A DNA stretch of 32,162 nt, from positions 1 to 32,162 of the forward strand of contig JBBISH010000078.1 in the NCBI GenBank assembly GCA_037441385.1, written 5' to 3'. A program made the position numbers and the translations under genes. The DNA comes from Myxococcales bacterium (GTDB lineage Bacteria; Myxococcota_A; UBA9042). The notes under the pieces are model-generated. The model saw only the letters and a list, made by a program, of their open reading frames with translations, did not search any database and was not told the origin of the DNA. Positions 2,362 to 27,777 of this stretch are shown piece after piece (positions within the stretch are counted from its first letter, which is position 1; each line of letters opens with the position of its first letter).

Positions 2362-3564
2362 CTATTGGCAGTTTTGCAGGCCGCACATCGCAAAGCTGAG
2401 GGCCTTGCTGTTGCCAAGCACGGGGCCGCGGCACTGGCCGACGCAGCTGGAGCCGGTGCCGCACTGCTTCATGCAGTTGGTGGTCTTGGTCAAGGCGTCC
2501 AGGCAACCAGGGTCGGCCTTGCACGCGGCCGCTTCAGCTGGGCATTTGGCGGCACCGCAAGCCCAGGCCTTGGCAAAGTCGGCGTCGCAGTCCAGTGGGC
2601 AAGTGGCAGCCGTCTCGCCGCTGTCGCACGATCCGTTGCCACAACCGCCGCTGCTGGCCGGAGCTGGGCAGTCCGGCGCGCAATTCGAGGTCGTTTCGCC
2701 GGGATCACACGTCCCATCGCCACAGATGGTCCCAGCCGTCGCCGCCACACAACCGGAGAAGCCGCAGGCAGCGACCGCACCGGCACTGGGATTTTGGTCG
2801 GCCATGTCTTTGCAGAAGCCGACGCAGTTGCTGTCGACACAGTTGGCCAAGCACTGCGCGGAGTTGGCCAAGAACGAGGTGCACTCGGTGCTGGCCAAAC
2901 AGGTCGACGTGGCACTGGCGCAGGCCTTTTTCAAGCACGCGATCACGCCCACGGTGTCGGGATCGCAGTCGATTTGGCAGGCGATGGCGTTCTCGCCGGG
3001 TGTGCACACGCCGTCGCCGCAGACCGAGGGCGGTGGAGGGCAATCGATCCAGCAGGTTGACCACGTCTCGCCGGCCGTGCACGCACCGTCGCCGCAGACT
3101 CCTTGCGGAACCGCCGTGTCGCCTTCGCTGGCGTCTGGGTCGGCGCCAGCATCGGTCGGCGCCAGATCGGCCGCAGAGGAATCCGCTGATGTGGTGTCGG
3201 GTTTGCTGGTATCGGCGCCGGCAGAATCCGGTTTGGCCGTGGGGACCGAATCGACGCCGCTGGCGTCCGCGTCTTGGCCCGCAGTCGGTTGCACGTCCCC
3301 GCCGCCCGACCAGCTGAGATCGAGCGAACTCCCATCGCTGGGCGACCAGCCGGCCCCGGTGCCCTCACTCTTGCTGGACCCGCAGGCCGCCACGGCCACG
3401 GCGAGAATCGCCAGGATCCACCAGGGCCTGCGGCAGCCGGCAGTGGAGCTTTGTCCGGCTTGGCAAAGCTCACAGCCCAAGGCGGGATCCCCGGCTGGCT
3501 CGCGCCGGTTGCCCAGCGCAGCGGGCGCGCCGAACTTGCGTGGATCGGGTGGGGTTGGGCTCAT
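2362..3564 (-). CDS. Cys-rich repeat lipoprotein (CG[DN]GxC..E...C..DC repeats)
   Basis: Hydrophobic stretch and lipobox-like WWILAILAVAVAA-C; Asp/Ser linker; four CG[DN]GxC repeats in two pairs; ATGA overlap with the upstream menC-menE stop. Confidence 0.85.
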   Translation of the reverse strand: MSPTPPDPRKFGAPAALGNRREPAGDPALGCELCQAGQSSTAGCRRPWWILAILAVAVAACGSSKSEGTGAGWSPSDGSSLDLSWSGGGDVQPTAGQDADASGVDSVPTAKPDSAGADTSKPDTTSADSSAADLAPTDAGADPDASEGDTAVPQGVCGDGACTAGETWSTCWIDCPPPPSVCGDGVCTPGENAIACQIDCDPDTVGVIACLKKACASATSTCLASTECTSFLANSAQCLANCVDSNCVGFCKDMADQNPSAGAVAACGFSGCVAATAGTICGDGTCDPGETTSNCAPDCPAPASSGGCGNGSCDSGETAATCPLDCDADFAKAWACGAAKCPAEAAACKADPGCLDALTKTTNCMKQCGTGSSCVGQCRGPVLGNSKALSFAMCGLQNCQ

Positions 3565-5927
3565 ACCTTCTTGGTAGCAGGTTCCCCGGCCGTTGGCCAG
3601 TGCGGCAGGTCCCGGCCGGCGCGTTCAAGCTCGCTGCGCACCACAGAGCGCTGCAGCTTGCCCATGGCGTTGCGCGGCAGTGGCTCGCGCGTCAACAGCC
3701 AGCGACGCGGCCGCTTGAACGGCGCCAACGTCGGCAATTCAAGAGAATACGGCCCCGCGTACGCGCCATCCACCTGCAACCACGCCGCCACCGCTTCGCC
3801 GCGGGCTCCGGCGGGCACACCCACGACCGCAGCGTCGAGCACGCCCGGCCTGCGCAGCAGCTCGGACTCGACCTCGAGCGGGTCCACGTTCTCGCCCGCC
3901 ACGATGATGCGGTCGGCGCGCCGGCTGGCCACCCACAGGGCGCCGTCTTGCCCCAAATGGCCAAGGTCGCCCGTAGGCCAGAATTGTCCGCGGGTTATGG
4001 GTTGCCCCACGTAGCCGATGGTGAGTTGTAGCGCCGCCACCTCGATCTCGCCCACGCCGTCCGGTTCGACGGGATCGGCGATGCGAAGCCAGACCCCGGG
4101 CAAGGGCCGGCCAACGCGGCGCAAGCCTTGAAGATCCTGGCTGGGCTCCCCCAGGGCCCCGGTTGCCGCCTGCCCCACGGTCTCGCTCATGCCCCAACTG
4201 GGCACGGCCGGCCAACCGTGCTCGCGCGCGCGATCGAGCAGACCAGGATCGAGCGACGCCCCGCCGACGAGCAACCAGCGCAAGGACGGTGGCGGCGGGC
4301 CCTGAGCCACCAACCCGGCCAATTGCAGAGGCACCACCGATAGATGCGTGACCGCGTGCGCCCCGGCGATGCGTTGGATGGCGCCAGCGTCGCCCAGGGC
4401 CGTCAGCGTCATGCACCCGGCCACCGCCGCCACCCGCAGCGCAATCGAGACGCCCGAGACATGCGAAAGAGGCAGACACGTCAACCAGTTGCAGGACGTC
4501 TCGGGCCAACACGCCCAGTGGGCGGCGGCCGCCGCGTGCAGGGTCTGGTGCGTGTGGACCACCAACCGGGCGCTCCCCGTAGTCCCCGAGGTGGCAATCC
4601 TGAGCGCGGCGCCCTGTGGGTCCAGCCAATGGCGCGGCGGGCGGGCGGCAGGCAGACTGACGGTGCAAGGAAGTGCTGTCGCCGCTGGCAGTTGTGTCTG
4701 GTGACTGGCGTCGACCAGGACCAACGTCGCGCCGCTGCGGTCCAGCACGGCGGTGGCCTCGGTCACCGTCCAGCGCGGGTGCAGCGGCTGCCAGCACGCC
4801 CCCAGACGCCAGATCGCCCACGCACAAACCAGCAGGTCCGGGTGGTTGTCGCACCAAGTCGCCACCGTGTGGCCCGGACCGATTCCACGGCCATCCAGCC
4901 AGGCGGCCGCAGAATCGACCAGATGATCCAGCTCTTGCCAGCTCCAGGCCCCGCGGCCATCGGCCCAGTGTAGCGCAGGGGCCCGCGGAGAACGGGCTGC
5001 CGCCTGGGCACACAGGTCGGGCAGGCAGGCCGCGGTGGTCGGTTGCGGCGCACGCCAGCGCGGGTCCACGCCGAGATCCGTGGCCAGGCCGCTCGCGACA
5101 ATCCGACCGGGAGCGGCCGCAGCCAAGGTTTTCAAGTGATCCAGCCCCAACGGCGCATCAAAGAGCGACGAAAAGGCGACCGGGATATCCAGTTCGGCCA
5201 ATTCGGCCAGCACCGTGCCCAGGGCATCCAGCGAGCCCAACAAACTGGGTTTGACAATCGCCAGCTGAGCGCGGCGCGTGCGCAACAGCGACAGCCAAGT
5301 CGGCAGATCGGAATCGACCAGATCGGCAGCCAGGGGCAGCGGCGCCTCGTGCGGCCAGCGATCGGCTGGGGTGGGATCCTCGACGCTCGCGATCCCTGCG
5401 GCATGACACGATTGCAGAATCGTCTGCAGTTCTGCCGCGTGCAACGCTGCCCAGGCCTGGTTCGCGTCGAGCCGGATTTCCCAGCCTTGCGCCAAGGGCC
5501 GCAGCCGAGCGAGCAGAGCGAGCAACGGCGTATCGACCGTGACTTTCACCTTGGCAGCAACGGCCTGGGTGGCACGCAGCAGGGCCTCGAGCTCGCCGGC
5601 AAAAACCGTGTGCTCGTCGACCGTCAGGGCTAGGGGCACCAACGGCCGCAGTTGGGTGCGCCAGCGTTGCGCCAAGTGCTCGCGCCACGGACGGCCCAGG
5701 CGCGCGGCGGTGTACTGGTCCTGAGCCACCTCGCGAGCGAATTGCTCCACCGAAGCAGACCATTGCGGCCGGTTGGCCAGGTAGGGCGCGGTCATCCAAC
5801 CCTGGACCGCGGGCGTGCCGTAGCCGATGAGGCGGCCGCTGAGCATCGCGTGGCGATCGCGGCTGCCTTGCACCCGTTGTTGCAGCGGGAGGCAGTAGGT
5901 TTGCTGGGGTAGCCACTGGGGATTCAT
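3561..5927 (-). CDS. menC-menE: Fused o-succinylbenzoate synthase (MenC) / o-succinylbenzoate-CoA ligase (MenE)
   Basis: N-terminal enolase-superfamily motifs KVK, RLDANQAW, VEDP, AAD, VKP. C-terminal adenylate-forming motifs TSGTTG, WGMSET, TGDLG, RRADRIIVAGENVDPLEVE, LPRNAMGKL. Lies 6 nt downstream of menA. Confidence 0.85.
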   Translation of the reverse strand: MNPQWLPQQTYCLPLQQRVQGSRDRHAMLSGRLIGYGTPAVQGWMTAPYLANRPQWSASVEQFAREVAQDQYTAARLGRPWREHLAQRWRTQLRPLVPLALTVDEHTVFAGELEALLRATQAVAAKVKVTVDTPLLALLARLRPLAQGWEIRLDANQAWAALHAAELQTILQSCHAAGIASVEDPTPADRWPHEAPLPLAADLVDSDLPTWLSLLRTRRAQLAIVKPSLLGSLDALGTVLAELAELDIPVAFSSLFDAPLGLDHLKTLAAAAPGRIVASGLATDLGVDPRWRAPQPTTAACLPDLCAQAAARSPRAPALHWADGRGAWSWQELDHLVDSAAAWLDGRGIGPGHTVATWCDNHPDLLVCAWAIWRLGACWQPLHPRWTVTEATAVLDRSGATLVLVDASHQTQLPAATALPCTVSLPAARPPRHWLDPQGAALRIATSGTTGSARLVVHTHQTLHAAAAAHWACWPETSCNWLTCLPLSHVSGVSIALRVAAVAGCMTLTALGDAGAIQRIAGAHAVTHLSVVPLQLAGLVAQGPPPPSLRWLLVGGASLDPGLLDRAREHGWPAVPSWGMSETVGQAATGALGEPSQDLQGLRRVGRPLPGVWLRIADPVEPDGVGEIEVAALQLTIGYVGQPITRGQFWPTGDLGHLGQDGALWVASRRADRIIVAGENVDPLEVESELLRRPGVLDAAVVGVPAGARGEAVAAWLQVDGAYAGPYSLELPTLAPFKRPRRWLLTREPLPRNAMGKLQRSVVRSELERAGRDLPHWPTAGEPATKKV

Positions 5928-5933
5928 CGCGAT

Positions 5934-6854
5934 CTAGCGCGCCAAGCCGCGCTGCAGGCCCAGCCCGATCGCCGCGAGCGTGCCGACCAGCAGGTGCCAG
6001 CGCGCCGTGCTGCCCAAGGCGCCGTTGAGCGTGGGGCCGTCGCTGTGCTTCCACACGACGCGCGCACTGCGAGCGATGGCGGGAAGGGCCAGCAGCGGCA
6101 ACGCCAACGGCCACGCGCCGTCGCGAACGGCCAGGCCAACGGGCACGCCCACGGCCATTGCTGCCATCAGCAAATACTCGACGCGGACCGCCGTAGCGCC
6201 CCAGCGGACGGCCAGCGTGCGCTTGCCCACCAGCACATCGGTCTCGGCATCGCGCAAGTTGTTGACGACCAAGATGGCGGTACACGAAGCGCCCACGGGC
6301 AGCGACCACAACACCGCGTCTGGGCCAAAGGTGCCGGCCTGGACAAAGTACGTGCCGACCACCGCCACGACCCCAAAGAAGGCAAAGACGAAGACGTCTC
6401 CCAGACCCAAGTAGCCCAGCGGCCACGGTCCACCGGTATACAGCACACCCGCCGCGACCGAGGCCAGGCCGATGTAGACCACCGGCATCCCACAGCGCCA
6501 GACCAAGTAGCTGCCACACAGTACAGCCAGCGCAAAGGTCAGGATCATCGCCCGCTTGACGGCTGCCGGCGTGACTAGGCCGGCCTGGGTCACCCGCAGC
6601 GGTCCCTTGCGCGCGGCCGTGTCGGCGCCCTTTTCGTAGTCAAAAACGTCGTTGGCGAAGTTGGTGCCCAGCTGAATGAGGAGCGCCCCCACCAGCGCGG
6701 CCAGCCACGGCAGCGCCTCGCCAACCCGGTCGCGCCAGGCAAGCGCGCCCCCAACCGCCAACGGGGCCAGCGCCGCCGTCAACGTGGCCGGGCGGGCGGC
6801 GAGCCACCAGATCTTCAGCGGGTGGATGGGCACGGACTCGGACACGGCGGGCAT
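5934..6854 (-). CDS. menA: 1,4-dihydroxy-2-naphthoate polyprenyltransferase
   Basis: AARPATL, QLGTNFANDVFDYEKGAD, YTGGPWPLGYLGLGD, NNLRDAETD..GKRTLAVR; polytopic membrane pattern. ATG at 6854. Confidence 0.95.
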   Translation of the reverse strand: MPAVSESVPIHPLKIWWLAARPATLTAALAPLAVGGALAWRDRVGEALPWLAALVGALLIQLGTNFANDVFDYEKGADTAARKGPLRVTQAGLVTPAAVKRAMILTFALAVLCGSYLVWRCGMPVVYIGLASVAAGVLYTGGPWPLGYLGLGDVFVFAFFGVVAVVGTYFVQAGTFGPDAVLWSLPVGASCTAILVVNNLRDAETDVLVGKRTLAVRWGATAVRVEYLLMAAMAVGVPVGLAVRDGAWPLALPLLALPAIARSARVVWKHSDGPTLNGALGSTARWHLLVGTLAAIGLGLQRGLAR

Positions 6855-7023
6855 GGTCACTCGGGCCGGGCCGGGCCGGCGGCCGGGCACTATAGCAGCA
6901 ACGCCGAGGCTGCGGAACCGGGTGACGGTCGCAACTCGGGCCTAGCGCAGATGTTTGCGCGCGGCCGCAACCTGCCCTACTCTGCGGCCATGGCGCCCAG
7001 CAAGGGCTGCCGCGAGGACATTC

Positions 7024-7524
7024 GTGCAACACAAGTCGATTCAGCTGATCTTGAAAACGGTGCTGGCCAGCCTGCTTGCCGCTACTTGGCTGTTCGCTGG
7101 CTGCGGCGGCGCGCAGAAGACGGAAACGTCGGCGCCAGCGGCCGCCGAGATGACCTGCCCCGTAAGCGGCAAGACCTTCACGCCCACGGCCGACTCGCCC
7201 AAGAGCGAGTACAAGGGCAAGACCTACACGTTCTGCTGCCCGGGCTGCAAAGCCAAATTCGACGCCAACCCTGATCAGTTTGCCGACAAGGCGGCCGCGG
7301 CGGCACCGGCCGGTCCGGCGATGGCCGTATGCCCGGTCAGCGGCGAGAAATTCGCCCCGACCGCCGAGTCGCCCAAGAGCGAATACAAAGGCAAAACCTA
7401 CGTATTTTGCTGCGCCGGCTGCAAGACGAAGTTCGACGCCGATCCTGACAAGATCCTGGCGGCGCCCGGCCAGCACCCCGACTGCGGCGGCGACTGCGAC
7501 GACAAGGCGCCGGCCGCGAAATAG
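7024..7524 (+). CDS. Lipoprotein with two YHS (metal-binding) domains
   Basis: GTG start at 7024 after GAGGA (7014-7018); lipobox LFAG-C; two CPVSG..F...SEYKGKTYxFCCxGCKxKFDAxP units; C-terminal HPDCGGDC. Confidence 0.88.
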   Translation: MQHKSIQLILKTVLASLLAATWLFAGCGGAQKTETSAPAAAEMTCPVSGKTFTPTADSPKSEYKGKTYTFCCPGCKAKFDANPDQFADKAAAAAPAGPAMAVCPVSGEKFAPTAESPKSEYKGKTYVFCCAGCKTKFDADPDKILAAPGQHPDCGGDCDDKAPAAK

Positions 7525-7589: not shown

Positions 7590-7674
7590 CGACCTGATTC
7601 GCGCCGGCGCGGCTTGCCTGGCCCGCTCTGCAACTAGCGAGAATCAGGCCGGTGCCCCGGCTCGAACCCGATGA
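7590..7674 (+). repeat. Structured intergenic repeat, copy B (5' part, element positions ~1-85)
   Basis: Ungapped match to 1-85, about 63/85 identical, including CTGCAAC..GCGAGAATCAGGC. Confidence 0.85.
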
Positions 7675-7692
7675 GCTAGTTTTGCGGGAAAT

Positions 7693-8403
7693 CTACGGCT
7701 GCTTGGGGGTCTTGGCCGCCTCGATGACCAACTGCTTGATTGCAGCGTACGAGTCCGGGTTGCTGAGAGTGGTGTCTTGCGCGCCACCATAAGGCAAGTA
7801 CTTGAAGAGCTTGCCTTCGCTGTCGTAGATATAAATATCGTCTTTGTGACCACCAAAGATGGTAGTCCACGACTGGACCGCGTCGCTGTCCTGCAGGACC
7901 GGGAAATCGCAGCGGCTCAGAAGCGCGGCCTGGTTGGCGACCGCGTCGCTTTTGTTGATGGTGACGAACCAGGCATCCACGCCGTGGTTCTTGAGTTCGG
8001 AGCGCATTCGGTCGAGCATCCCAGCCTGGGACACGCAGAAGCCTCACCACCCAGCTAAGAGTGCGACCACGGTTGGCCGCCCAACAAAGGCTTTGAGCCC
8101 GTAAGTGGCCTTGTAGCCACAACTGTGGGGCTGCACGTCCGGGAGCGCGAAATCGTCCACGCCTTGGCCCACGACCGGCGTGTGCTCTGCAGCGCCGGGC
8201 AGCGCCGCCGGACCGGCCTGGGCCTGCCAAGCTGCGGCGGGCGGAGTTGGCCCCACGCACACGAACGGGACGTCGGCGCCGGCATCAACCGTGGCCGTCG
8301 TGGCGGCGGTCGGAGCGCTTTCGGTGCAGGCTAGTAGGGCGATGACGGCAGTCAGGGACGCGGGCAACCCGCGCCACACCCAGGCCGAGCAGTGGCTGTT
8401 CAT
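7693..8403 (-). CDS. Probable selenoprotein: thioredoxin-fold (AhpC/TSA/redoxin-like) lipoprotein with UxxC motif, read through TGA at 8044-8046
   Basis: ORFs 8044-8460 and 7693-8034 are in one frame, joined by TGG TGA GGC TTC TGC (W-U-G-F-C) at the CxxC position after GRPTVVALLAG. Redoxin-like DFALPD upstream and FPVLQD / DIYIYDSEGKL downstream. Lipobox-like IALLA-C; GAGG before ATG 8403; SECIS-like hairpin follows. 236 aa if read through. Confidence 0.85.
8016..8034 (-). promoter_or_regulatory. Putative bacterial SECIS hairpin
   Basis: GUGUCCCA-GGC-UGGGAUGC: 8-bp stem (2 G-U), loop starting with G, 17 nt between the UGA and the loop. Confidence 0.65.
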
Positions 8404-8485
8404 GAAACCTCGCGCGGCCGCCTTGCGCCGCTCCAACAGCATAACCGCAAGCGACCCCAACGTTCAAAGCGGCCGTGTCACGCGC

Positions 8486-8546
8486 ACCCTGGATCGGGCC
8501 CAAGGATTTGCCGAGTGTTTCGATCCGATTTGGACGGAACCGGTAT
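8486..8546 (+). repeat. Structured intergenic repeat, copy C (3' part, element positions ~65-125)
   Basis: Ungapped match to 65-125, about 50/61 identical, including CCGATTTGGACGGAA. Confidence 0.85.
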
Positions 8547-8568: not shown

Positions 8569-10170
8569 CTACAGACGAAAATCGTCGTCTTTTTTGGACG
8601 GTTGCGTGCTCGAAGGCCGCTTGGCCGGGCGGGCCGCAGCTGGGGCCGCCGGCGATTCTGCGGTCGCTTCGTCGGGCAGCGGCTGCGCGGGAGGGACCGC
8701 GGCCGGGGGGGCTGCTGTGGGCGCGGCCACCGCGGGCGGACGAGCGGCCACAACTGGAGCGGCCGGCGCTGGGTTCGCCGGGACTGGGTTGGCCGGGGCA
8801 ATGGGTGCCGGAATCGCGACTTGGCCGGCAGCGGACGGCGCCGGGGGAGAAACCGCCGCGGGAGCTGGCGCGGACGGGGCCGCGATCGCGGGCGAGGCGG
8901 GCTGAACGGGGGCCTGGCCGCGGGCAAACCACAGCGCCGCCGCCGCGCCTGCGGCCAAAAGTCCAACGGCGGCGACGACCATAGCGACCATGGGTCCACG
9001 GCCCGTCTTGGCGGCCGCCGCAGGGTCTGCAACCGGTGCCGCTGCCAGGGCTGCTGGATCGGGACGATAGGCCAGGGTCGCTTGGGGCGCGGCGGCACCG
9101 TCGGCCAGGGGTGCGGTGGTGCGCTGCATGGCCACGGTGGGCTTGACGTCCGTGGGCATCTGCCGGTCCGGGCGCTGCGGCACCGGCCGATTGGGCCGCA
9201 CGCCGGCGGCGCCGGCAAGAATCCTTTGCAGTTCCGCTTTGTAGGCCTGCGCATCCGCGCTGCGACCGGCGGGCGATTTGCTCAAGTTGCGCGCCAGGAA
9301 CGGCTCGATGGCCGCCGCCACCGCTAGGTTGGGCGCCACTTGCGACAGCCGCGGCGGCTCGTCTTTGAGGTGCTTGATCAGCAACGACATCGGCGACGAG
9401 TCCTGGAACGGCAGCTGCCCGGACAACATCTCGAATACCATAACTGTCAAGGAATATAGATCCGAGCTGCCGATCACGTCGCTGCGCCCATCGATCTGCT
9501 CGGGGCTCATGTACTGAGGCGTGCCCACGATGGCGCCGGCCTCGGTCAACGTGCTCAGCGCGCGCTCGTCGTGGCCGGCCACCTTGGCGATGCCAAAGTC
9601 CAGGATTTTGACAAAGTCGTCGGCGCCGGCCTGGCTGGTCAGCAACACGTTGTCGGGCTTGAGGTCGCGGTGGATGATGCCTTGGGCGTGCGCTTCGGCC
9701 AAGGCGTCGCAAATCTGCCCAGCAATCGCCGATACGCGCGGCGGCGGCAGCGGCCCCTTGGCCAAGTCGTGCGACAGCGAGCGCCCCTTGACCAACTCCA
9801 TGACCAGATACAGCAGGCCCTGGCTGGTCTGGCCAAAGTCGACCAGATGCACCGTATGCGAGTGCGCCAGCCGCGAAATGACCTGGGCCTCGCGGTGGAA
9901 GCGGCGCACGGTCTCGGCGTCGGCGACCTGATCGGGGTGGATGACCTTGATGGCCACCTCGCGCCCCACGGACACCTGCGTGCCCACGTAGACGGCGCCC
10001 ATCCCGCCCTGACCCAGGAGCCGGTCGATGCGGAAGCGGCCGTCCAAGTCGGTACCGACCAACTGCGCGGCCCGGTCGGGCTGGACGAGCAAGAGCTTGG
10101 CGCCATCGTCCGGGCAGACTTGGACGCCGGCTTCAAAATCACGACTACAGGCAGGGCAGACAGAACGCAT
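8569..10170 (-). CDS. Membrane Ser/Thr protein kinase with N-terminal Zn-ribbon-like CPAC..CPDD
   Basis: GQGGMGAVY, VAIKVI, HRDLKPDN, DFG, GTPQYMSPE; TM helix then Pro/Ala tail. Start set at ATG 10170 because the longer ORF overlaps the divergent gene. Confidence 0.93.
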   Translation of the reverse strand: MRSVCPACSRDFEAGVQVCPDDGAKLLLVQPDRAAQLVGTDLDGRFRIDRLLGQGGMGAVYVGTQVSVGREVAIKVIHPDQVADAETVRRFHREAQVISRLAHSHTVHLVDFGQTSQGLLYLVMELVKGRSLSHDLAKGPLPPPRVSAIAGQICDALAEAHAQGIIHRDLKPDNVLLTSQAGADDFVKILDFGIAKVAGHDERALSTLTEAGAIVGTPQYMSPEQIDGRSDVIGSSDLYSLTVMVFEMLSGQLPFQDSSPMSLLIKHLKDEPPRLSQVAPNLAVAAAIEPFLARNLSKSPAGRSADAQAYKAELQRILAGAAGVRPNRPVPQRPDRQMPTDVKPTVAMQRTTAPLADGAAAPQATLAYRPDPAALAAAPVADPAAAAKTGRGPMVAMVVAAVGLLAAGAAAALWFARGQAPVQPASPAIAAPSAPAPAAVSPPAPSAAGQVAIPAPIAPANPVPANPAPAAPVVAARPPAVAAPTAAPPAAVPPAQPLPDEATAESPAAPAAARPAKRPSSTQPSKKDDDFRL

Positions 10171-10354
10171 CACAGGGCGATGGTAGGGCCGAGCGCGCCC
10201 CCGCGCAATCAATTGCGGATTGAACGGCCAATCCTTCGGCTCTTCTGGGCTTTGCGGGCAGGCAATCGCGGCGGCTGCCGTTGCTCGCAGCGGCCAATTC
10301 CGGTACAAACGCGCTCGAAACTGCCGGCCACGCCTTGGCCGCGAGATCCCAAAG

Positions 10355-11935
10355 ATGCAAGCTCTTCCCTCTCTGCTGCGAATTCGTTGGTCAGCGGCTG
10401 CCCTGGCGTTGACCGTGGTTGCGACCGGCTGCGGCGGTTCCAAGCTGTCGGCCTTCCTGCGCGACGACCCCTCGCTGAGCTACGGCAAGACCTGCGCGGC
10501 CCAGTCCAAGTCGCAGACCGAGCGCCTGATCTCGGGCGACTACGTGCCTGCGCGCCTTTTTGTAGAGACGTGGCCCAAGGCGAGCGCGCCCACCGAGCCC
10601 TTCATCCGCGAAGGTCGGTTGGTCGCCGCCATCGAGTCCGGCGAAGTGCATCGCGTCTTGGTCCTGGCGCGCGGCGGCATGGGCAAGTCGGCGCTGGTCG
10701 AGTCGATCACGGGGCAACTGTGCGGAACAGTTCCCGTATTCCCGCTGGACCTGACGGCGCTGTCCAAGGTCGACCGGCCCGTGTCCGCCACGATTGTGGG
10801 GCAGATTGCCCGCGAAATCGGCGCGTCGGGCAAGCCCGAGCAGCAGCAAGAATTGCTCGAGGCCATGGCCAACGAGGCGTTCTTGGTGGTGGCCGACCAC
10901 GCCGACGAAGTCGACCTGGCCCGCCGCCCTGCCGTAATGCAAGCCCTGGCCGACTTTGGCAAAGAGCACGCGCGCACTGTGACGTTGTTGCTGGCGCGTC
11001 CGCCCGTCCTGGATGCCGACTATGGTTTTTCGGCCGACACCAAGCTGGAGATTCCGCCGCTGGAGTGCCAGGCGACCGATGCCGTATTAGCCAAGCAATT
11101 CAAAGATGAAGAGGACCGCGCGGCCTTCTCGCAGCTGCTCAACCGCTACGGCTTGGACGAAAAGGCCCGCTATGGCGTGCAGTGCATGTATCCGTCGCTG
11201 TCGACCTATCGCGACGTGCAGGTGGTGAGCGAGTTCTTCCGCACCTCGCGCACCGGCGAGAGCCTGGTCAGCCCGTCGGCCGTGTTCGAAGCCCTGATTG
11301 GCGCACGTCTGCACAAGGAATTCGAGGACATGCGTTGGACTCAGGCCGACGCCCTGGACATGGGCGATCGGTTGCTGCGGGCCAGCAACGCCGCCACCGG
11401 TCTGTCGAACCTGACCTTTGACCTGGCGGTCTGCGAGAAGTCGATCGACCCGCGCTGGGGCGATGCCGCAGTGGACGCGGGTGTGTCGGGCAGCGCGACC
11501 GATCGCAAACGCCACGTATGCGAAAAGACTTTCCAAAGCGCGATGTTCACCTCTGCAGAGGGTGACAAGGGCTACAAGTTCTCGGACCACTCGACGCAAG
11601 AACTGTTCCTGGCGCGTTGGCTCAACGGCGAGGTCGCGCGTGCGGGCCAGAACTGCGGGTCGCTAGAGGCCCACCGCGACTTGATCGCCAACACGGGTGT
11701 GCTCAAGTTCCTGGCAGGTCAGCCTTTTGGCCGTCGCTGTCTGGCCAACGTGGTGGCCATCGGCTGCGCCAAGATCGACGCCATCGAACTCACCAAGACC
11801 CTGGATGTGGGCCTACCGGTGGGCAAAGTGCGCAACCAAATCCTGCAAGAAGCGCACGCGGCGGGTACGTCGCTGCAACCCCAGGCGTGCGTGAAGCAAG
11901 TTCTGGACGACCTGGACCGCACGGTGAGCGAGTAG
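10355..11935 (+). CDS. Lipoprotein containing a NACHT/STAND-like P-loop NTPase module
   Basis: Signal peptide and lipobox AAALALTVVATG-C; Walker A VLVLARGGMGKS; Walker B FLVVADHADE; sensor-like LLLARP; LEIPPL; winged-helix-like YKFSDHSTQELFLARWL. Confidence 0.75.
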   Translation: MQALPSLLRIRWSAAALALTVVATGCGGSKLSAFLRDDPSLSYGKTCAAQSKSQTERLISGDYVPARLFVETWPKASAPTEPFIREGRLVAAIESGEVHRVLVLARGGMGKSALVESITGQLCGTVPVFPLDLTALSKVDRPVSATIVGQIAREIGASGKPEQQQELLEAMANEAFLVVADHADEVDLARRPAVMQALADFGKEHARTVTLLLARPPVLDADYGFSADTKLEIPPLECQATDAVLAKQFKDEEDRAAFSQLLNRYGLDEKARYGVQCMYPSLSTYRDVQVVSEFFRTSRTGESLVSPSAVFEALIGARLHKEFEDMRWTQADALDMGDRLLRASNAATGLSNLTFDLAVCEKSIDPRWGDAAVDAGVSGSATDRKRHVCEKTFQSAMFTSAEGDKGYKFSDHSTQELFLARWLNGEVARAGQNCGSLEAHRDLIANTGVLKFLAGQPFGRRCLANVVAIGCAKIDAIELTKTLDVGLPVGKVRNQILQEAHAAGTSLQPQACVKQVLDDLDRTVSE

Positions 11936-14338: not shown

Positions 14339-16102
14339 CTAAAGCCGCTCTTCCAAAGCGCTCTTACCGCCGGTCTTTTCGCCCCCGGTCTTGGTGCCAC
14401 CCGTCTTGACCTTGGCGGGCCCGCCGGTAGCGGCCTTCTTGGGCTCGGCCGGCCGCTCGTCTTCTAGCTTGCGCAGATCGACCTGGACCGTGGGTGCGTC
14501 GGCGCGGGTGACATCCATCTCGCGGTCGGCAAAGCCCTCTGCCTGCAGCAGCACGGTCACGCGCTCGCTGCCCTGGATCTTGACCGCATACGGCGTCTTG
14601 CCCACTTCTTTTTCGCCGATCTTCACGGCGGCACCGGCCGGCTTGGTGTGGAGCATTACCTCGACCGGCCCAGAGGGGACCGGCGCCGCCGCGACCGGGG
14701 CTGGGGCAGGGGCGGGCGCTGGCGCAGGCTCTGCGGGTTTGGGTGCAGGGGCGACGGGGGCAGCGGCCGCGGCTGGTGGCGGCACAGGAGCCTCCTCGCT
14801 GCGCGACATGAAGTAGCCCCCCACCACGAGGATGAGCGCCAAAACCGCACCGCCGGCCGCCAGGGCCGCCATAGGCAGCGACTTGGCGGTGGGCGGGGTC
14901 ATCAAGGCGACGTCCACTGCCGCGACTCCCGCAGTGTGGCTGGCCGGGGCGGGCGGCGGCACAGGTGTCACGCCCTTGGGCCCGGTGTTGGGCCGGACCG
15001 AAGGGGGCGTACGCGCCCGACCGCCATCGGTGTACGACGACGTCTTGTGGCGCGCCGCCACCACATCGTAGCTCTCGGTCGCGGGCTCGGCGTCGTCGGT
15101 GGCGGGCACGGTGCCGGGCAAGATGGTCGGCCGAATTCGCTCGCCGCGATCGGCACCCCGGCACGCATCCAGCGCTTGGCGCATCTCGATGGCAGTCTCG
15201 AAGCGGTCGGATGGCGACTTGGCCATCGCCCTCTCGACCACGCGGATGAAGTCGTCGCTGAGCGGCGAACGTGCCGTCTCGTGCAGATCCGGCGCCGTAT
15301 CCGCCACATGCGACATCAAGATCGACAGCGGGTTGTCGGCATCAAACGGCGGCTTGCCGGAAGCCAACTGGTACAGCACGCAACCCAGCGAATACAGGTC
15401 CGAGCGCCGGTCGACGTTCTTGTTCTGCGCCTGCTCGGGGCTCATGTACGCCGGCGTGCCAAAGGCCTTGCCTGTGCCCGTCAGGTTGCTGCCCAGGCGC
15501 TTGGCGATGCCAAAGTCCAGCACCTTCACCACGGGGTCATCGCCCTGCACTTGGTGCAAGAAGATGTTGTGCGGCTTCAGGTCGCGGTGCACCAGGTTCG
15601 CCATATGGGCTTCGGACAGCGAGCGCAGCACCTGCGAGCCGATCGTGATGATCTCCGCCTCGGTAAACGGCTGGTTTTCGGCCAGGCGGTCGCGCAGCTC
15701 TTCGTTGAGCGGCCGACCACTCAGCAGCTCCATGGCGATGTAGAGCGCGCCGCCCTCGGTCTGGCCAAAATCAAAGACGCGGATGGTGTTGGGATGCTTG
15801 AGCGATGCCGTCACCTGCGCTTCGGCAAAAAAGCGCTGGATCACGTCCGAGTCGTCTTGGTCCAGGGCCACCGCCAGCAGCTTGATGGCAATGTCCTGGT
15901 CGGTGGCCATGTTCTTGGCCTTGTAGACCGCGCCGAATCCGCCTTGGCCGATGATCTTGTCGATGCGGTAGCGCCCGTTGACTTCGGTGCCCTCGGGCAG
16001 CTTGGCGTCGGGGTTCTGCGACAGCACCAAGGTGGCGGTCCCGTCGTCCGGGCACCGCGCTTCCTGAGTCTTTTTGCCGCATTTGGGACAAAGGCGTTTC
16101 AA
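14339..16102 (-). CDS. Membrane Ser/Thr protein kinase with N-terminal CPKC..CPDD and C-terminal PEGA domain
   Basis: TTG start at 16102, 8 nt after GGAGG; GQGGFGAVY, IAIKLL, HRDLKPHN, DFG, GTPAYMSPE; TM helix; PEGA-like TKPAGAAVKIGEKEVGKTP. The rest of the 1111-aa ORF is antisense to ffh. Confidence 0.92.
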   Translation of the reverse strand: MKRLCPKCGKKTQEARCPDDGTATLVLSQNPDAKLPEGTEVNGRYRIDKIIGQGGFGAVYKAKNMATDQDIAIKLLAVALDQDDSDVIQRFFAEAQVTASLKHPNTIRVFDFGQTEGGALYIAMELLSGRPLNEELRDRLAENQPFTEAEIITIGSQVLRSLSEAHMANLVHRDLKPHNIFLHQVQGDDPVVKVLDFGIAKRLGSNLTGTGKAFGTPAYMSPEQAQNKNVDRRSDLYSLGCVLYQLASGKPPFDADNPLSILMSHVADTAPDLHETARSPLSDDFIRVVERAMAKSPSDRFETAIEMRQALDACRGADRGERIRPTILPGTVPATDDAEPATESYDVVAARHKTSSYTDGGRARTPPSVRPNTGPKGVTPVPPPAPASHTAGVAAVDVALMTPPTAKSLPMAALAAGGAVLALILVVGGYFMSRSEEAPVPPPAAAAAPVAPAPKPAEPAPAPAPAPAPVAAAPVPSGPVEVMLHTKPAGAAVKIGEKEVGKTPYAVKIQGSERVTVLLQAEGFADREMDVTRADAPTVQVDLRKLEDERPAEPKKAATGGPAKVKTGGTKTGGEKTGGKSALEERL

Positions 16103-16312
16103 CTTGCCATCCTCCGAGCGACCTTGCGCCGCGCCGCCTGAAAGGTTGGACGCAGCAACTGCACGCCGGATTCGGTATCTTAGACCATGCGTAGCCAGTT
16201 TGGCGAATTCGCCGAGTTGGCAATTCGCGAGCCGTGCGTTGCCAGAAGCCGGGCTGGGCGCTACCCTACGCGGCCTTTGCCGGCCCAGCCATCGGGCCGA
16301 AACACTGCGATC

Positions 16313-17986
16313 ATGCTCGAATCGATTACCAAAGGTTTCCGCTCTGCCCGTCACCGCCTGCAGGGCTATCGCGAACTGGACGAAGACACCCTGGAAGAGG
16401 TGCTGCAGGACATCCGCACGTCGCTGCTGGAAGCCGACGTCGAGTTCGGGGTCGCCAAGCGGTTCCTGGCCGAGGTCAAGGCCAAGGCGCTGGGCGAGGT
16501 CGTGCAAGTGCGCGCCGCCGATGGCGCAGGCCAGACCCGCCGCGTAACTCCTCAAGATCACTTCATCAAGATCTGTCACGACGAGCTCATGACGCTGATG
16601 GATCCGGGCGAGCCGGGCATCACCTTCAAGCCGAAGGGCGTGACCAGCATCATGATGGTCGGTCTGCAGGGCTCGGGCAAGACGACCACGGCCGGCAAGC
16701 TGGCGAATCTGTTCAAGTCCGAGGGCAAGAAGGTCCTTTTGGTCGCCGCCGACGTGTACCGCCCGGCCGCCATCGACCAGTTGAAGGTCCTGGGCCAGCG
16801 CCTGGAGGTGCCGGTGCACTCGGTAGCGGGCATGATGCCGCCCGAGCTGTGCAAGACCGGGTTCGACAAGGCCAAAGACGGCAACTTCGACGTCGTGATC
16901 TTCGATACCGCCGGCCGCTTGACGATCGATCAGCAGCTGATGGACGAGCTGGGCACGATCCGCAAGCAGACCCCGCCCGATCACGTGCTGCTGGTCATCG
17001 ACGCGATGATCGGTCAGGACGCGGTCACGACCGCCAAGCATTTCAACGAGAAGGTGGGCATCGACGGCGTGGTGCTGACCAAGCTCGACGGCGATGCCCG
17101 CGGCGGCGCAGCGCTGTCGGTCAAGATGGTCACGGGCGCGCCGGTCAAGTTCGTGGGCTTGGGCGAGGGCCTGGACAAGCTGGAGCCGTTCCGCGCCGAA
17201 GGCATGGCCAGCCGCATCCTGGGCATGGGCGACGTCGTCAGCTTGATGAACGATTTCAGCAAGCTCATTGACGAAAAGAAGGCCGAGCAAGACGCCAAGC
17301 GGCTGCTGACCGGCAAGTTCACGCTGTCGGATTTCTTGGAGCAGATCCGTTTGCTCAAGAAGATGGGCAGCTTGCGCGACGTGATGGAGCGGCTGCCGTT
17401 TTTCTCGGACGCGCTGGCCGACGGGATGAAATTCGACGATCGCGAGCTGATCCGCATCGAGGCGATCATCCAGTCGATGACACCCGAAGAGCGCAAGAAG
17501 CCTGCGATTTTGAACGCGCGCCGGGTGCAGCGCATCGCTCGCGGCTCGGGTCGCAAGCCGCAAGATGTGCTGGATCTGGTGCAGCGCTACGAGGTGATGC
17601 GGCAGATGATGGCGCGTATCGGCCAGGCGCCGGGGCTGCTGTCGCGGCTGCCGGGCTTTGGCCAGATGGCGCAACTTAGCAAGATGAAAGGCGCGGGCGT
17701 CGACGGCTTCTTTGACGAAGTGGAGAAGATGGCGATGCCGGGGATGGGCGGCATGCCGGGGATGCCGGGGATGCCCGGAATGGGTGGCATGCCGGGGATG
17801 CCCGGAATGCCGGGGATGCCTGGGATGGGCGGTATGCCCGGAATGCCGGGCGGTTTTGGCGGGATGGACCCCTTTGGCATGGCCGGCCAGCCCAAGCTGC
17901 CGCCGCGCCGCGAGGTCGACCGCGACGACCGCAAGAAGAAGAACAAGCAGGCCGCCCAGGCGCGCAAGAAGAACCGCAAGAAGTAG
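16313..17986 (+). CDS. ffh: Signal recognition particle protein Ffh
   Basis: LLEADV, GLQGSGKTT, ADVYRPAA, DTAGR, TKLDGDARGGAALS, RILGMGD, IIQSMT.EER, RIARGSG. Confidence 0.98.
   Translation: MLESITKGFRSARHRLQGYRELDEDTLEEVLQDIRTSLLEADVEFGVAKRFLAEVKAKALGEVVQVRAADGAGQTRRVTPQDHFIKICHDELMTLMDPGEPGITFKPKGVTSIMMVGLQGSGKTTTAGKLANLFKSEGKKVLLVAADVYRPAAIDQLKVLGQRLEVPVHSVAGMMPPELCKTGFDKAKDGNFDVVIFDTAGRLTIDQQLMDELGTIRKQTPPDHVLLVIDAMIGQDAVTTAKHFNEKVGIDGVVLTKLDGDARGGAALSVKMVTGAPVKFVGLGEGLDKLEPFRAEGMASRILGMGDVVSLMNDFSKLIDEKKAEQDAKRLLTGKFTLSDFLEQIRLLKKMGSLRDVMERLPFFSDALADGMKFDDRELIRIEAIIQSMTPEERKKPAILNARRVQRIARGSGRKPQDVLDLVQRYEVMRQMMARIGQAPGLLSRLPGFGQMAQLSKMKGAGVDGFFDEVEKMAMPGMGGMPGMPGMPGMGGMPGMPGMPGMPGMGGMPGMPGGFGGMDPFGMAGQPKLPPRREVDRDDRKKKNKQAAQARKKNRKK
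17735..17851 (+). repeat. 13 x 9-bp coding tandem repeat (MPG x10, MGG x3) in the Ffh C-tail
   Basis: ATGCCNGGN / ATGGGNGGN units with synonymous variation. Confidence 0.9.
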
Positions 17987-19287: not shown

Positions 19288-19692
19288 CTACGGCGTTTGC
19301 AGCCACTCGGTCAGCGGCTCGAAGTAGTAGTCGATCCAGCCCTGCTTGTAGCGATCGCCGCTGCCCGGCGGAATTTCGGTGTGGCGCAGGGTGAGCCAGG
19401 TACCGCCGTCGCCCGCGCGCAGATGGATCTCCACCTGCGAATCCGGCGCGTCGCTTGGGAACTCGCCGGTGCGCCAGCGCTGCAAGATGCGGACATTGGG
19501 CTGCAACTCGAGATGAACGCCCTGGATGTAGCCGTCCCAAGCCGTAAAGGCGCCGCCGGGAACCGGGTCCGACGTGGCCCCCGCCTCGGTAAAGTCGGCG
19601 TGCAGCTCGGCGGTGATCCAGGCACGGAAGATGGCTTCAGGGCTCGCCACAAAGAACGCTTCGAGTTCGAACGCTTCGGTCGCTCCGCTCAT
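19288..19692 (-). CDS. SRPBCC / AHSA1-like (START-fold) protein
   Basis: SPEAIFRAW, PGGAFTAWDGYIQG, RILQRWR, TWLTLRHTEIP, GWIDYYFEPL. Confidence 0.88.
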   Translation of the reverse strand: MSGATEAFELEAFFVASPEAIFRAWITAELHADFTEAGATSDPVPGGAFTAWDGYIQGVHLELQPNVRILQRWRTGEFPSDAPDSQVEIHLRAGDGGTWLTLRHTEIPPGSGDRYKQGWIDYYFEPLTEWLQTP

Positions 19693-19722: not shown

Positions 19723-20460
19723 TCAGCCCATTGCTTGCAGCACAGCTTGCTCGAATCGGCGAGCATCCCCAGCAAATTCAGCAAGCTCCGCCGGCTCGAA
19801 CTGACGCGCCAGCACGCCCCCGGCCACCACGGCCGCGCGGGTCGCCACGGCGAGCGTCGCCTCGGCCATGTGGCTGGCCAGCACAAACGCCGTGCCCTGA
19901 TCGCGGCGTGCGCATATCAAATCGCGCAGCGCCAGGGCCGACCGCACGTCCAGTCCGGTGTGCGGCTCGTCCAGCAGGATGAGCGGCGCCCGGCTCAAGA
20001 ACGCGAGGCACAGTGCGGCCTTGTGTGCCATGCCGCCCGACAAAGAGCGGATCGGCAAGTCCAGGGCGCGGTCCAAGCGGAACGTGGCGGCCAACTCGGT
20101 CAACTCCGCGGGCCACTGCGGAGCAAGTCCGCGAAATCCGGCCATCGCTGCGGCATGCTCGCGCAGACTGCACAGGGGCGCCAGCGGGGGATGCTGGGCG
20201 ACGTAGACCAGCTGGGCGCGGGCCTGCTCGGCCTGGCGCCGCAGATCGACGCCGAGCACGGCCACGTCGCCGGCATCGGCGGGCAGCTCGCCCGCCAAAA
20301 GCCGCATCAGGGTGGTCTTGCCCGCACCGTTTTCGCCAAGCAGCACCAGGATCTCGCTGGCGTGCAGACGCAGATCCACCCGCGACAGTACGACCTTGTC
20401 GCCATAGCGCTTGGAAAGACCTGCGGCCTGCAGCACGGGCTCTGTGCCTGGTTGCGTCAT
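19723..20460 (-). CDS. ABC transporter ATP-binding protein
   Basis: GENGAGKT, LSGGM, LILLDEP, H-loop SHM. Confidence 0.93.
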   Translation of the reverse strand: MTQPGTEPVLQAAGLSKRYGDKVVLSRVDLRLHASEILVLLGENGAGKTTLMRLLAGELPADAGDVAVLGVDLRRQAEQARAQLVYVAQHPPLAPLCSLREHAAAMAGFRGLAPQWPAELTELAATFRLDRALDLPIRSLSGGMAHKAALCLAFLSRAPLILLDEPHTGLDVRSALALRDLICARRDQGTAFVLASHMAEATLAVATRAAVVAGGVLARQFEPAELAEFAGDARRFEQAVLQAMG

Positions 20461-23552: not shown

Positions 23553-23966
23553 CCCGCGAGACAGGCGAAGCACGCGACGCAACACTTCTTTTCCGACATG
23601 ACACTTTTGCAACAAACGTTCGTTTTATGGCTTGACGCTCCTGCGGCACCCGCCCAGACTGGCCGTAGACGCTGTACGAGCGCGCTGGCAGGGGGTCAGT
23701 GGGCATCGTTCTACTTGTCGACACCGGCGGTTCGGGGTTGGGTGGGCACCCGCCCGTGGCGCCAAGGAGGTTCCATCGCAGCGCCTGGGCAGAGGGCCGC
23801 CTGCGACAACCCATCGACGCTTCGGTCCGCCGCGCTGTCTCCGTCGCCAAGGGGACATCGGCAGCGGAAAGGCTAGCGAAAATGCCTGGGTCCTACGGCC
23901 CGGTCAGGTTCGCAGGGCCGTCCTGGGCGCAGGGTCTCGTCGCAGCCAGCAGAGGTGACTCGCATC

Positions 23967-25028
23967 ATGGCAGATCCACAACAGCATCCCGAGCCGACGC
24001 CGACCTCGGCCAAGGCAGGTATCTTCTCGTTCGCCTACTCCAGGCGTGTCTTTGGACTCCTCGTCGTCGCCCTGGCCGTGGGCGCGGCCGTGCGGGCTGC
24101 CGCTAAGCCCGCAGGATTTGGGGTGCGCGGCCATTGGCGCGACGCCGCACCGGCCGAAGAAGCGGCTCGCACGCCGCTGCTGCAAGGCAAGCTGACCTGC
24201 GCGGACTGCCACAAACCCGAATTCACCGGCCACGAAAAGGACGTGCACCGCTCGATCCAGTGCGAAGTCTGCCACGGACCCGGTCGCGAACACGTCAAGG
24301 CCCGCAAGTCCGACGCGCCGGTCGACCAAGAGCGGATGTTCCGCGAGCTCGAGCCGTCGAACTGCCTGACTTGCCACAGCCGGCTGTCGGCGCGGCCCAG
24401 TTCGCACCCGACCATCGACCCCGTCGCCCACTACGAGTTCCGCGGCGTGACCGATCCCAAGACGCCGTGTCAGTCGTGCCACAGCCCGCACGAGCCACTG
24501 TACTTGGAGACCGAGGTCGGCAAGGCGCGGCCCCACCCATTGGTCCAGCAGTGCCGCGACTGCCACCGCGACCCGGCCACCCAGGCCAAGCCCGTGCCAG
24601 AGGGCCACGTCGCCATCTTTGACTGCAAGGACTGCCACGACGACATCGCCGCCAGTTTTGCCCAGCGTCCGCACGCCAAGGAACTGCAGTGCCGCACTTG
24701 CCACAAGCTGCACAAAGAGACGGAGTCGTCGGCGCGCATGTTCAAGAACGGCAACCCGCGCTTCTGCCTGATGTGCCACGAGCAAAAGCCGTTCAAGGGC
24801 AAGGGCAAGATCCCGCTCATCGCCGGCTTTGCCCAGCACGTCGCGGACATGGGCGGCCCAGAGGACAAGGACAAGCGCTGCGTGGACTGCCACTTCACCG
24901 AGTACATCCACGAGCGCTCGACCCGGCGTGCCCACTTGGTACCGCCAGCCACTGCCACACCAACGGACGCCCCGGCAGCCGCGACGCCCACTCAGCCCAC
25001 CTCGGCACCGACGCAGAAGGAGGAGTAG
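23967..25028 (+). CDS. Multiheme cytochrome c, 9 CxxCH, N-terminal membrane anchor or signal
   Basis: CADCH, CEVCH, CLTCH, CQSCH, CRDCH, CKDCH, CRTCH, CLMCH, CVDCH; GAGGTGA before ATG 23967. Confidence 0.93.
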   Translation: MADPQQHPEPTPTSAKAGIFSFAYSRRVFGLLVVALAVGAAVRAAAKPAGFGVRGHWRDAAPAEEAARTPLLQGKLTCADCHKPEFTGHEKDVHRSIQCEVCHGPGREHVKARKSDAPVDQERMFRELEPSNCLTCHSRLSARPSSHPTIDPVAHYEFRGVTDPKTPCQSCHSPHEPLYLETEVGKARPHPLVQQCRDCHRDPATQAKPVPEGHVAIFDCKDCHDDIAASFAQRPHAKELQCRTCHKLHKETESSARMFKNGNPRFCLMCHEQKPFKGKGKIPLIAGFAQHVADMGGPEDKDKRCVDCHFTEYIHERSTRRAHLVPPATATPTDAPAAATPTQPTSAPTQKEE

Positions 25029-25030
25029 CC

Positions 25031-25855: not shown

Positions 25856-25987
25856 GGAAACCCGCGGAGTCGAGCCGATTTCCGTGGTGACCTTGGCCAC
25901 TGCAGCGCGCACCGCCATTGCCCGCCAGGCGCGGGCCCAAGCGCCGCACCGCTGCCCCTATCACCGCCTTTTCGAGTTGAGGTCCAC

Positions 25988-27223: not shown

Positions 27224-27439
27224 GCGCCAAACCCGCCGACCGGAGCCCACGCACGGACGCATATTCGCCGGCCTCCAGGTCATTAGCTGCATAATTCCAA
27301 TACATTACAGACACCAAATCCCGGCAACGCGTGACAGCAGCGTGACCGTGTAGCGGCCTTTCGATCTGCCGCAACGCGTCAAGCTGCGTTATCCTGCCCC
27401 TGTAGGGCGGGCCTGACCCCGCTTGAGCAGGAGAACCGC

Positions 27440-27673
27440 ATGGACCCCCAGTTCCAAAGCGAACTGACCGCCGCCATCCTGACCCTGACGCCGGGCATGA
27501 TCCTCCTGGCGTTGGTCGCCCTGGTCGGGCTGCTGATGCTTCTTGAGAAAGCCGGCATCCTGGCCTCGTTCAGCGGCACCGCCAAGCCGGCCGCGGCAGC
27601 GACCGCCGAAGCAGCCAAAGTCGAGACTCCGACAGAGCCCAGCCCGACCCCGCCCGAGACCAAGTCGCCCTAG
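27440..27673 (+). CDS. Small single-pass membrane protein (77 aa)
   Basis: AGGAGA RBS; hydrophobic helix; Pro/Ala/Thr tail; lies inside the cytochrome cluster. Confidence 0.65.
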   Translation: MDPQFQSELTAAILTLTPGMILLALVALVGLLMLLEKAGILASFSGTAKPAAAATAEAAKVETPTEPSPTPPETKSP

Positions 27674-27777
27674 CCGGCTTCCGTTCGACCTGGACCCCTT
27701 CTCACTTACCCCCGCCCGCGCCACCGCGGCACGCCCAAGCAAGGTCAGCGTGCCACCGGCGCTGTGGAGCCAAGGTC

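Follow-up and report, generated by a model that had tools for sequence, protein, structure and literature searches.

Analysis of a 32,162-nucleotide stretch of Myxococcales DNA (contig JBBISH010000078.1, assembly GCA_037441385.1; hereafter the window, with a GC content of 67.5%) revealed a gene at 7693..8403 on the minus strand that very probably is one gene for a UxxC selenoprotein, in which an in-frame UGA would be decoded as selenocysteine (Sec) and which annotation has split in two. This reading is directly supported by a single frame across the UGA, the pairing of Sec with Cys at the same position in relatives, the conservation of the UGA, a hairpin that is itself conserved and covaries, and a DsbE/ResA/TlpA-type thioredoxin fold. 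All coordinates are positions in the window unless a locus is named, and the gene is read on the minus strand, where its central elements are the following:

7693..8403, minus strand: complete predicted selenoprotein gene of 236 codons, ending in TAG, with UGA as codon 120
8044..8046, minus strand: putative Sec codon, an in-frame UGA at residue 120, the first position of UxxC
8035..8046, minus strand: redox motif U-G-F-C (Sec120...Cys123) preceded by Trp119, from the translation
8016..8034, minus strand: hairpin resembling a bacterial selenocysteine insertion sequence (bSECIS), stem 8034-8027 with 8023-8016, loop GGC at 8026-8024

The minus-strand codons around the site read GTC GCA CTC TTA GCT GGG TGG TGA GGC TTC TGC GTG TCC CAG GCT GGG ATG, giving VALLAGW-TGA-GFC in translation with the TGA at 8046-8044. 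Under the standard code two open reading frames (ORFs) result: the first (8044..8460, 138 aa) terminates at this TGA, and the second (7693..8034, 113 aa) lies in the same frame and begins with a GTG at 8034. Reading through from the ATG at 8403, with TGA taken as U, gives an uninterrupted protein of 236 aa with U at residue 120. The G+C content of third codon positions (GC3) in the gene frame was 0.78 in the part before the TGA and 0.80 in the part after it; in the latter part the two alternative frames had 0.55 and 0.40. The similarly high value on either side of the TGA in one frame indicates that both halves are coding in that frame. The initial annotation of this DNA had claimed two same-frame ORFs split by a single TGA at 8044-8046 and one 236-aa read-through product; the minus-strand read and the ORF list agree with the former, and the single frame, its GC3 and domain matches across the junction with the latter. 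GAGG precedes the ATG at 8403, and the same Met is present in the orthologues of two related loci (L001 and L002, introduced below); the public record of the L001 contig also uses this start. An upstream ATG at 8442, which corresponds to the start of P0002, may serve as an alternative. In the same public record, which is that of the closest relative, the two halves stand as separate hypothetical proteins of 116 (N-terminal half) and 109 aa, so that the mis-annotation suspected at the outset is literally on file.

The codon was then compared among relatives. An exhaustive HMMER search returned 459 cluster representatives at E <= 1e-3, and the best 150 of the 459 were aligned. Cys occupied the U column, forming CxxC, in 118 of these 150, while 5 stopped exactly before the column (...LLAGW) and 25 started just after it. 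The remaining two were a fragment with a single residue upstream and a protein of 221 aa (P0013) that reads G-G-W-G-Y-C, with Trp at the Sec/Cys column; this Trp looks like a TGA translated by a gene caller with genetic code 4 or 25, which would make P0013 another hidden Sec form. A clearly different residue at the U column was found in none of the best 150 representatives. Cys is thus the alternative residue at this position, and about one fifth of the sampled family is split there. When the natural Cys homologue P0005 was used as the query, the search returned AhpC-TSA-type clusters dominated by Myxococcota, and some clusters labelled viral on the basis of few records.

At the nucleotide level, a scan of species-representative genomes with the C-terminal half gave 12 related loci (L001-L012), all of them from metagenome-assembled genomes of Myxococcota (Myxococcales, Polyangiaceae, "Deltaproteobacteria"). 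The homologous codon was an in-frame TGA in 10 of the 12, in the context W-TGA-G-F/Y-C or W-TGA-S-Y-C, and TGC in the other two (L004 and L012), in line with the expectation that homologues would carry Cys or TGA at the site. Together with the window gene this makes 11 TGA genes, and 13 genes when both TGC genes are included. Protein identity between the window gene and the related loci ranged from 51 to 100% in the 45 residues leading up to the codon and from 38 to 90% after it. Retention of the TGA despite such strong divergence on both sides shows that the stop is maintained and that the frame downstream is under constraint at the protein level. In the window, TGA is also the stop codon of 3 of the 14 genes with family support and therefore has not been globally reassigned.

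The hairpin that the initial annotation had proposed, a G-loop structure at 8016-8034 starting at the tenth nucleotide after the UGA, was recovered as an 8-bp stem with a GGC loop. Nine nucleotides lie between the UGA and the stem, the distance from the UGA to the loop is 17 nt, and the loop is closed by an A-U pair (A-GGC-U). Its 12-nt core, TCCCAGGCTGGG, at 8031-8020, encodes S-Q-A-G, occurs only once in the window and is identical in all 11 TGA genes. Among 42 alignment columns with an invariant, codon-degenerate amino acid, 6 use a single codon throughout the 11 TGA genes, and 4 of these 6 are the consecutive S-Q-A-G of the hairpin. The codons fixed there are minor ones in the window, TCC accounting for 11% of Ser, GCT for 8% of Ala and GGG for 16% of Gly. 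The two TGC genes encode T/A-Q-S-G at this place by other codons and do not form the hairpin.

The consensus structure obtained with RNAalifold from the 11 TGA genes is a 7-bp hairpin with the GGC loop. Four stem pairs are invariant and hence uninformative on covariation, and the two basal pairs vary on both strands (UG/AU/CG/GC and AU/GU/GC). With the RNAalifold structure 97.4% of the cells were paired, compared with 26-47% when the partners were slid by 1-3 columns, and the observed covariation was reached by 1 of 500 column shuffles. A covariance model of the UGA plus hairpin gave the 11 TGA genes 48.6-58.4 bits, a range set by construction, and left the two TGC genes unmatched; a search for further sites with this model found nothing above 12.9 bits in about 100 kb, the best in the window scoring 9.8 bits (E ~1). 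The published bSECIS model specifies a loop of 3-9 nt, a stem of 4-16 bp, a UGA-to-loop distance of 16-37 nt, a minimum free energy of <= -7.5 kcal/mol and G in the first two loop positions in the pattern N1-G-[G|U]-N-N2 (PMC13188914). The GGC loop, the 7-8 bp stem and the 17-nt spacing all lie within this model, as does the energy of -11.7 kcal/mol, a value that belongs to a 35-nt stretch made up of the hairpin plus a 2-bp side helix and not to the hairpin alone. The presence of the core in 11 of 11 TGA genes and in neither TGC gene, together with the compensatory pairs and the agreement with the bSECIS model, bears out the suggestion that the hairpin behaves as a SECIS element.

The joined protein was analysed for domains, fold and export signals, and the following features were delimited:

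7717..8160, minus strand: thioredoxin-fold (redoxin/SelP_N-like) domain, residues 82-229, from Pfam, NCBIfam, AlphaFold2 and Foldseek
8326..8403, minus strand: predicted signal peptide with the lipobox L-L-A-C at residues 23-26, Cys26 at 8328-8326
8119..8259, minus strand: N-terminal extension with two extra Cys, C49 (FVCVG, 8259-8257) and C95 (HSCG, 8121-8119)

The top Pfam match was SelP_N (PF04592), at 44.2 bits against a gathering threshold of 23.2 (E = 2e-11), with profile positions 22-124 lying on residues 105-202, a stretch that includes U120. Redoxin (36.5 bits, cut-off 26.6) and AhpC-TSA (36.3 bits, cut-off 26) also matched across the junction, and Thioredoxin matched below its cut-off. 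SelP_N was still matched by the C-terminal half alone, while no Pfam family was matched by the N-terminal half alone. Among the sampled family members, SelP_N was matched by 84 of 85, and in the alignment of these 85 the columns of C120 and C123 were the only invariant ones. In bacteria, this family is the one that fits the SelP_N profile best. The AlphaFold2 model, built with 85 relatives, showed the joined protein as one compact domain, with a mean predicted local distance difference test score (pLDDT) of 88.7 and values above 94 through the thioredoxin-fold part and the junction. The best matches to this model in the PDB, obtained with Foldseek, were DsbE (3gl3; E = 1e-9, target-normalised TM 0.84) and then ResA (2h1b/1su9), with DsbF, CcmG (2b1k) and TlpA (4txo/4txv) also among the top matches, whose E values ranged from 1e-9 to 6e-7. 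A sequence search of solved structures gave weak matches to PDI (23.5 bits).

At the N-terminus, L-L-A-C follows a hydrophobic stretch, as in the lipobox rule for bacterial lipoproteins, and Cys is present in the lipobox column in 99 of 118 full-length relatives. Residues 1-26 are thus predicted to be a lipoprotein signal, and the mature protein would be lipid-anchored outside the cytoplasm. The two extra N-terminal Cys noticed initially are both present, C49 in FVCVG and C95 in HSCG; further Cys are C5, the lipobox C26 and C165. C95 occurs in 72 of the 118 relatives, 65 of which also have an upstream C-x-G; C49 and C95 may form a structural disulfide.

Taken together, codon 120 would be read as Sec during translation, with the hairpin 9 nt downstream acting as a bacterial SECIS that would recruit SelB with Sec-tRNA(Sec). 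The predicted product is an exported, lipid-anchored thiol/selenol oxidoreductase of 236 residues with the active site Trp-Sec-Gly-Phe-Cys. Sec120 would be the exposed nucleophile that attacks a substrate disulfide or persulfide, and Cys123 would resolve the intermediate in a selenenylsulfide/selenol-thiol cycle, which would parallel that of the structurally similar extracytoplasmic reductases DsbE/CcmG/ResA/TlpA. The likeliest substrate class would be periplasmic Cys-containing partners.

A different chemistry for the same selenoprotein, that is, peroxide reduction of the peroxiredoxin or glutathione peroxidase kind instead of thiol:disulfide exchange, is possible but on balance unlikely. Peroxiredoxins carry their peroxidatic Cys in the motif T/S-x-x-C, and the protein has A-G-W-U, with no Thr or Ser at position -3; its W-U-x-x-C motif is of the thioredoxin/TlpA type. 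The AhpC-TSA match (36.3 bits over a cut-off of 26) and the Redoxin match fit a peroxidase, and peroxiredoxins and glutathione peroxidases (e.g., 2p5q, AhpC entries) are in the Foldseek list, but the top structural neighbours are DsbE, ResA, CcmG and TlpA, not peroxiredoxins. A further point for peroxide reduction comes from animal SelP, which is reported to have reduced phospholipid hydroperoxides in vitro, with the N-terminal domain suggested as possibly responsible (Lobanov et al. 2008, PMC2397514).

Two readings that dispense with Sec altogether are both very improbable. The first takes the locus at face value as two proteins, a lipoprotein of 119 residues ending at the UGA and a protein of 113 residues starting from the GTG at 8034, which is what standard gene callers report and how the nearest relative is annotated; some termination at the UGA is in any case expected in bacterial selenoprotein genes, and more of it when selenium is scarce. 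The break between the two would, however, fall inside the CxxC of a thioredoxin fold, Cys-form relatives are continuous across it, and the joined model is one domain with pLDDT above 94 at the junction. Moreover, the N-terminal half has no Pfam match of its own, and no Shine-Dalgarno-like motif was seen before the GTG at 8034. The second supposes that the UGA is read as Trp or Cys, by a near-cognate or suppressor tRNA or by local reassignment of the code. Sec machinery can insert Cys under selenium limitation, and P0013 does carry Trp at the column, but this Trp would most simply be the code 4 or 25 translation mentioned above. UGA stops 3 of the 14 well-supported genes in the window, relatives carry Cys, which is chemically analogous to Sec, at the aligned position, and conservation of a SECIS-type hairpin with canonical spacing is seen only together with TGA. 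That the TGA is a nonsense mutation or an assembly or sequencing error in an ordinary CxxC redoxin gene has next to no probability, for although Cys is usual at this codon (118 of 150 relatives, and TGC, one base away from TGA, in 2 of 12 loci), the same TGA recurs in 10 of 12 independent loci whose downstream identity is only 38-90%, the downstream GC3 is 0.80, and the hairpin is fixed at synonymous sites along with TGA and absent from both TGC genes.

Several observations weigh against a Sec-decoded gene with the activity proposed here. The folding energy of the hairpin region is unexceptional: the 35-nt stretch (-11.7 kcal/mol) had a z score of -0.54, with 61 of 200 shuffled sequences folding as well, and a 66-nt stretch had z = +0.69. 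Folding energy was accordingly rejected as stand-alone evidence for the hairpin, being no better than that of shuffled sequence at either length, and the significance of the element comes only from the comparison with relatives. A search of 7600-8500 against Rfam at E <= 10 gave only two chance-level matches to unrelated families; Rfam is not known to include a general model of bacterial SECIS elements. NF053656, the one curated selenoprotein model that was matched, scored 63.1 bits, below its cut-off of 100. Most members of the family use Cys (118 of 150), so neither the fold nor the basic chemistry depends on Sec, and the related loci all come from metagenome-assembled genomes. The proposed substrate and redox direction come only from structural neighbours and gene neighbourhood. 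Finally, there are no tRNA genes in the 32-kb window and no selA, selB or selD among its 22 ORFs; tRNA genes were likewise absent from the 12 related loci. A table in Zhang et al. (2006, PMC1794560) credits the myxobacterium Anaeromyxobacter dehalogenans with 11 selenoproteins, which shows that the Sec trait exists in that group.

Genomic context analysis pointed to candidate partners. In 8 of the 12 related loci the redoxin gene is directly followed by a gene for a di-haem cytochrome c-rhodanese; these are 6 of the 10 Sec forms (L006-L011) and both Cys forms (L004, L012). The genes, in the coordinates of each locus, are the following:

L004, 3333-4358: cytochrome c-rhodanese gene
L006, 1788-2846: cytochrome c-rhodanese gene
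L007, 3327-4352: cytochrome c-rhodanese gene
L008, 3330-4352: cytochrome c-rhodanese gene
L009, 3330-4352: cytochrome c-rhodanese gene
L010, 2402-3439: cytochrome c-rhodanese gene
L011, 3278-4357: cytochrome c-rhodanese gene
L012, 3108-4133: cytochrome c-rhodanese gene

Each encodes a lipoprotein, about 341-360 aa long, in which two CxxCH cytochrome c domains are fused to a rhodanese domain; the latter has an invariant Y-C-A-C-P-H-A loop. In L007-L010 the start of the cytochrome c-rhodanese gene overlaps or abuts the redoxin stop. This arrangement suggests the di-haem cytochrome c-rhodanese lipoprotein as a candidate substrate or partner in most relatives. A complex prediction for the L004 Cys-form redoxin with its cytochrome c-rhodanese gave a score of 0.00, which is no verdict either way. 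A literature search found no description of a cytochrome c-rhodanese fusion or of a cytochrome c-rhodanese/thioredoxin module. The recurrent pairing offers a testable lead to function.

In the window, as well as in L001 and L002, the place of this gene as neighbour is taken by a gene with YHS/TRASH domains, which is followed in all three by the same two genes in the same order (YHS gene, menA, menC-menE fusion). In the window these are:

6955-7524, plus strand, convergent: gene for a lipoprotein that has a lipobox-like F-A-G-C and two metal-binding domains of the YHS/TRASH type (Pfam YHS, 88.7 bits)
5934-6890, minus strand: menA (NF004751, 302 bits against a cut-off of 264)
3561-5927, minus strand: fused ORF of 788 aa, menC-like (enolase C-terminal) plus menE-like (AMP-binding)

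In the clade of the window gene, this YHS-domain lipoprotein may be a candidate substrate or partner.

The history of the Sec codon was examined in a maximum-likelihood tree of 27 rows, consisting of the 13 genes and 14 hand-picked Cys representatives, the other representatives being omitted. The 11 Sec forms fall within one subclade of 15 rows, and the Cys forms L004 and L012 lie inside a well-supported clade (98/96) with the Sec forms L006-L009, L001, L002 and the window gene. The starred branches of the tree require at least three Sec/Cys changes. L004 and L012 also share with L007-L009 the synteny of PEPCK, redoxin, cytochrome c-rhodanese and VWA genes. The nesting in the tree and the shared synteny indicate that Sec and Cys replaced each other at a single orthologous locus and that the hairpin was lost along with the UGA. 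Such repeated switching at one locus is a small natural experiment on Sec retention, and the 11 aligned sequences of UGA plus hairpin and the two matched Cys-form loci make up a compact set on which SECIS detection in GC-rich Myxococcota can be trained and validated.

Elsewhere in the window, a second same-frame TGA junction at 19723-19725 (minus strand), with high-GC3 segments on both sides, was considered as a Sec site and rejected, this TGA being the ordinary stop of an ABC-transporter ATPase gene. The two genes concerned are:

19723-20460, minus strand: ABC-transporter ATPase gene, ending at the TGA
19288-19680, minus strand: AHSA1/SRPBCC-like gene, with its own ATG, following the ATPase gene

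The region 23955-29157 (plus strand) holds a cluster of multihaem c-type cytochromes, at 23955-25028 and at 27778-29157 (the latter with an NrfH/NapC-like N-terminus), and within it an NrfD/PsrC-like membrane subunit at 25988-27223; the cluster looks like a quinol-linked periplasmic electron-transfer module. Three genes for eukaryotic-type Ser/Thr protein kinases, typical of Myxococcota, are located on the minus strand at 125-2296, 8569-10443 and 14339-16180. For the last of these the long ORF (14339-17674) overlaps ffh (16187-17986, plus strand), and the kinase start must therefore lie further downstream than the first possible one. A large open-ended ORF at 30311-32131 (minus strand) contains acidic double-disulfide repeats (NF033662) and Dictyostelium-type Cys-rich repeats (Pfam Dicty_CTDC), and its predicted product is a Cys-rich secreted repeat protein.

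Among bacterial selenoproteins, UxxC proteins with a thioredoxin fold have long been recognised as a class, and the closest curated family is NF053656 (TUGYCR motif thioredoxin fold (seleno)protein). It was the best NCBIfam match, its whole 146-position model aligning with residues 82-229 (E = 2.5e-17), and 85 of 85 sampled members of the window family matched it at E <= 1e-3, the best with E = 9.3e-27. The two have in common the fold and a Sec or Cys at the first position of UxxC followed by G-[FY]-C, but the motif here is G-W-U-G-F-C-V instead of T-U-G-Y-C-R. As neither the cut-off of NF053656 nor its motif is reached, the window protein is a relative and not a member of the same family, and the window family looks, by its sequence, like a sister family of NF053656. 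In practice, standard annotation splits the gene into two hypothetical proteins and this closest curated model (63 bits against 100) does not rescue it.

Catalogued bacterial types that resemble it are the "Prx-like thiol:disulfide oxidoreductase" (PF00578, UxxC/UxxU) and the "Redoxin family protein" (PF08534, UxxC), listed in tables of two reviews (PMC13188914, PMC9312934). The AhpC-TSA and Redoxin assignments and the motif type are shared with them, a comparison made by description only, and the passages on these types in the two reviews make no mention of SelP_N, lipoproteins or Myxococcota. With the best structural matches, DsbE/CcmG, ResA, TlpA and DsbF, the protein shares a motif of the W-C-x-x-C type and, by prediction, an exported or membrane-tethered location. 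It differs from them in its predicted Sec for the first Cys and in an N-terminal, Cys-bearing extension, and its similarity in sequence is weak, reaching none of the NCBIfam cut-offs (TlpA 14.6 bits against 230, ResA 18.3 against 170); no cytochrome-maturation (ccm/res) genes lie beside the window gene.

Like animal SelP, the protein is predicted to be secreted and to have UxxC with Sec first, and it is structurally near TlpA/ResA. In contrast to SelP, it is a predicted bacterial lipoprotein of 236 aa that lacks a C-terminal selenium-transport domain rich in His or Sec, and it would have a single Sec and a bacterial hairpin within the ORF instead of a SECIS in the 3'-untranslated region. Lobanov et al. 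(2008, PMC2397514) went no further than to describe the N-terminal domain of SelP as a distant relative of bacterial proteins of the TlpA/ResA type. Precomputed Pfam labels already place PF04592 on proteins such as the one described here, so the SelP_N similarity is implicit in databases; a literature search found no paper describing a Sec-containing bacterial protein of the SelP_N type, and none joining Myxococcota with selenoprotein and selenocysteine. A bolder proposal, which we consider distinctly unlikely, is that this Myxococcota family is the prokaryotic sister, and possibly the source lineage, of the animal SelP N-domain, with Sec at the homologous UxxC, and at the same time the selenol arm of a periplasmic relay with the di-haem cytochrome c-rhodanese, coupling the transfer of sulfur or selenium (persulfide/perselenide) to the respiratory chain. 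If it were true, the enzymatic role of the SelP N-domain could be studied in a tractable bacterial system. The most interesting link to known systems is a bacterial family that scores above the SelP_N threshold and would carry Sec in its UxxC.

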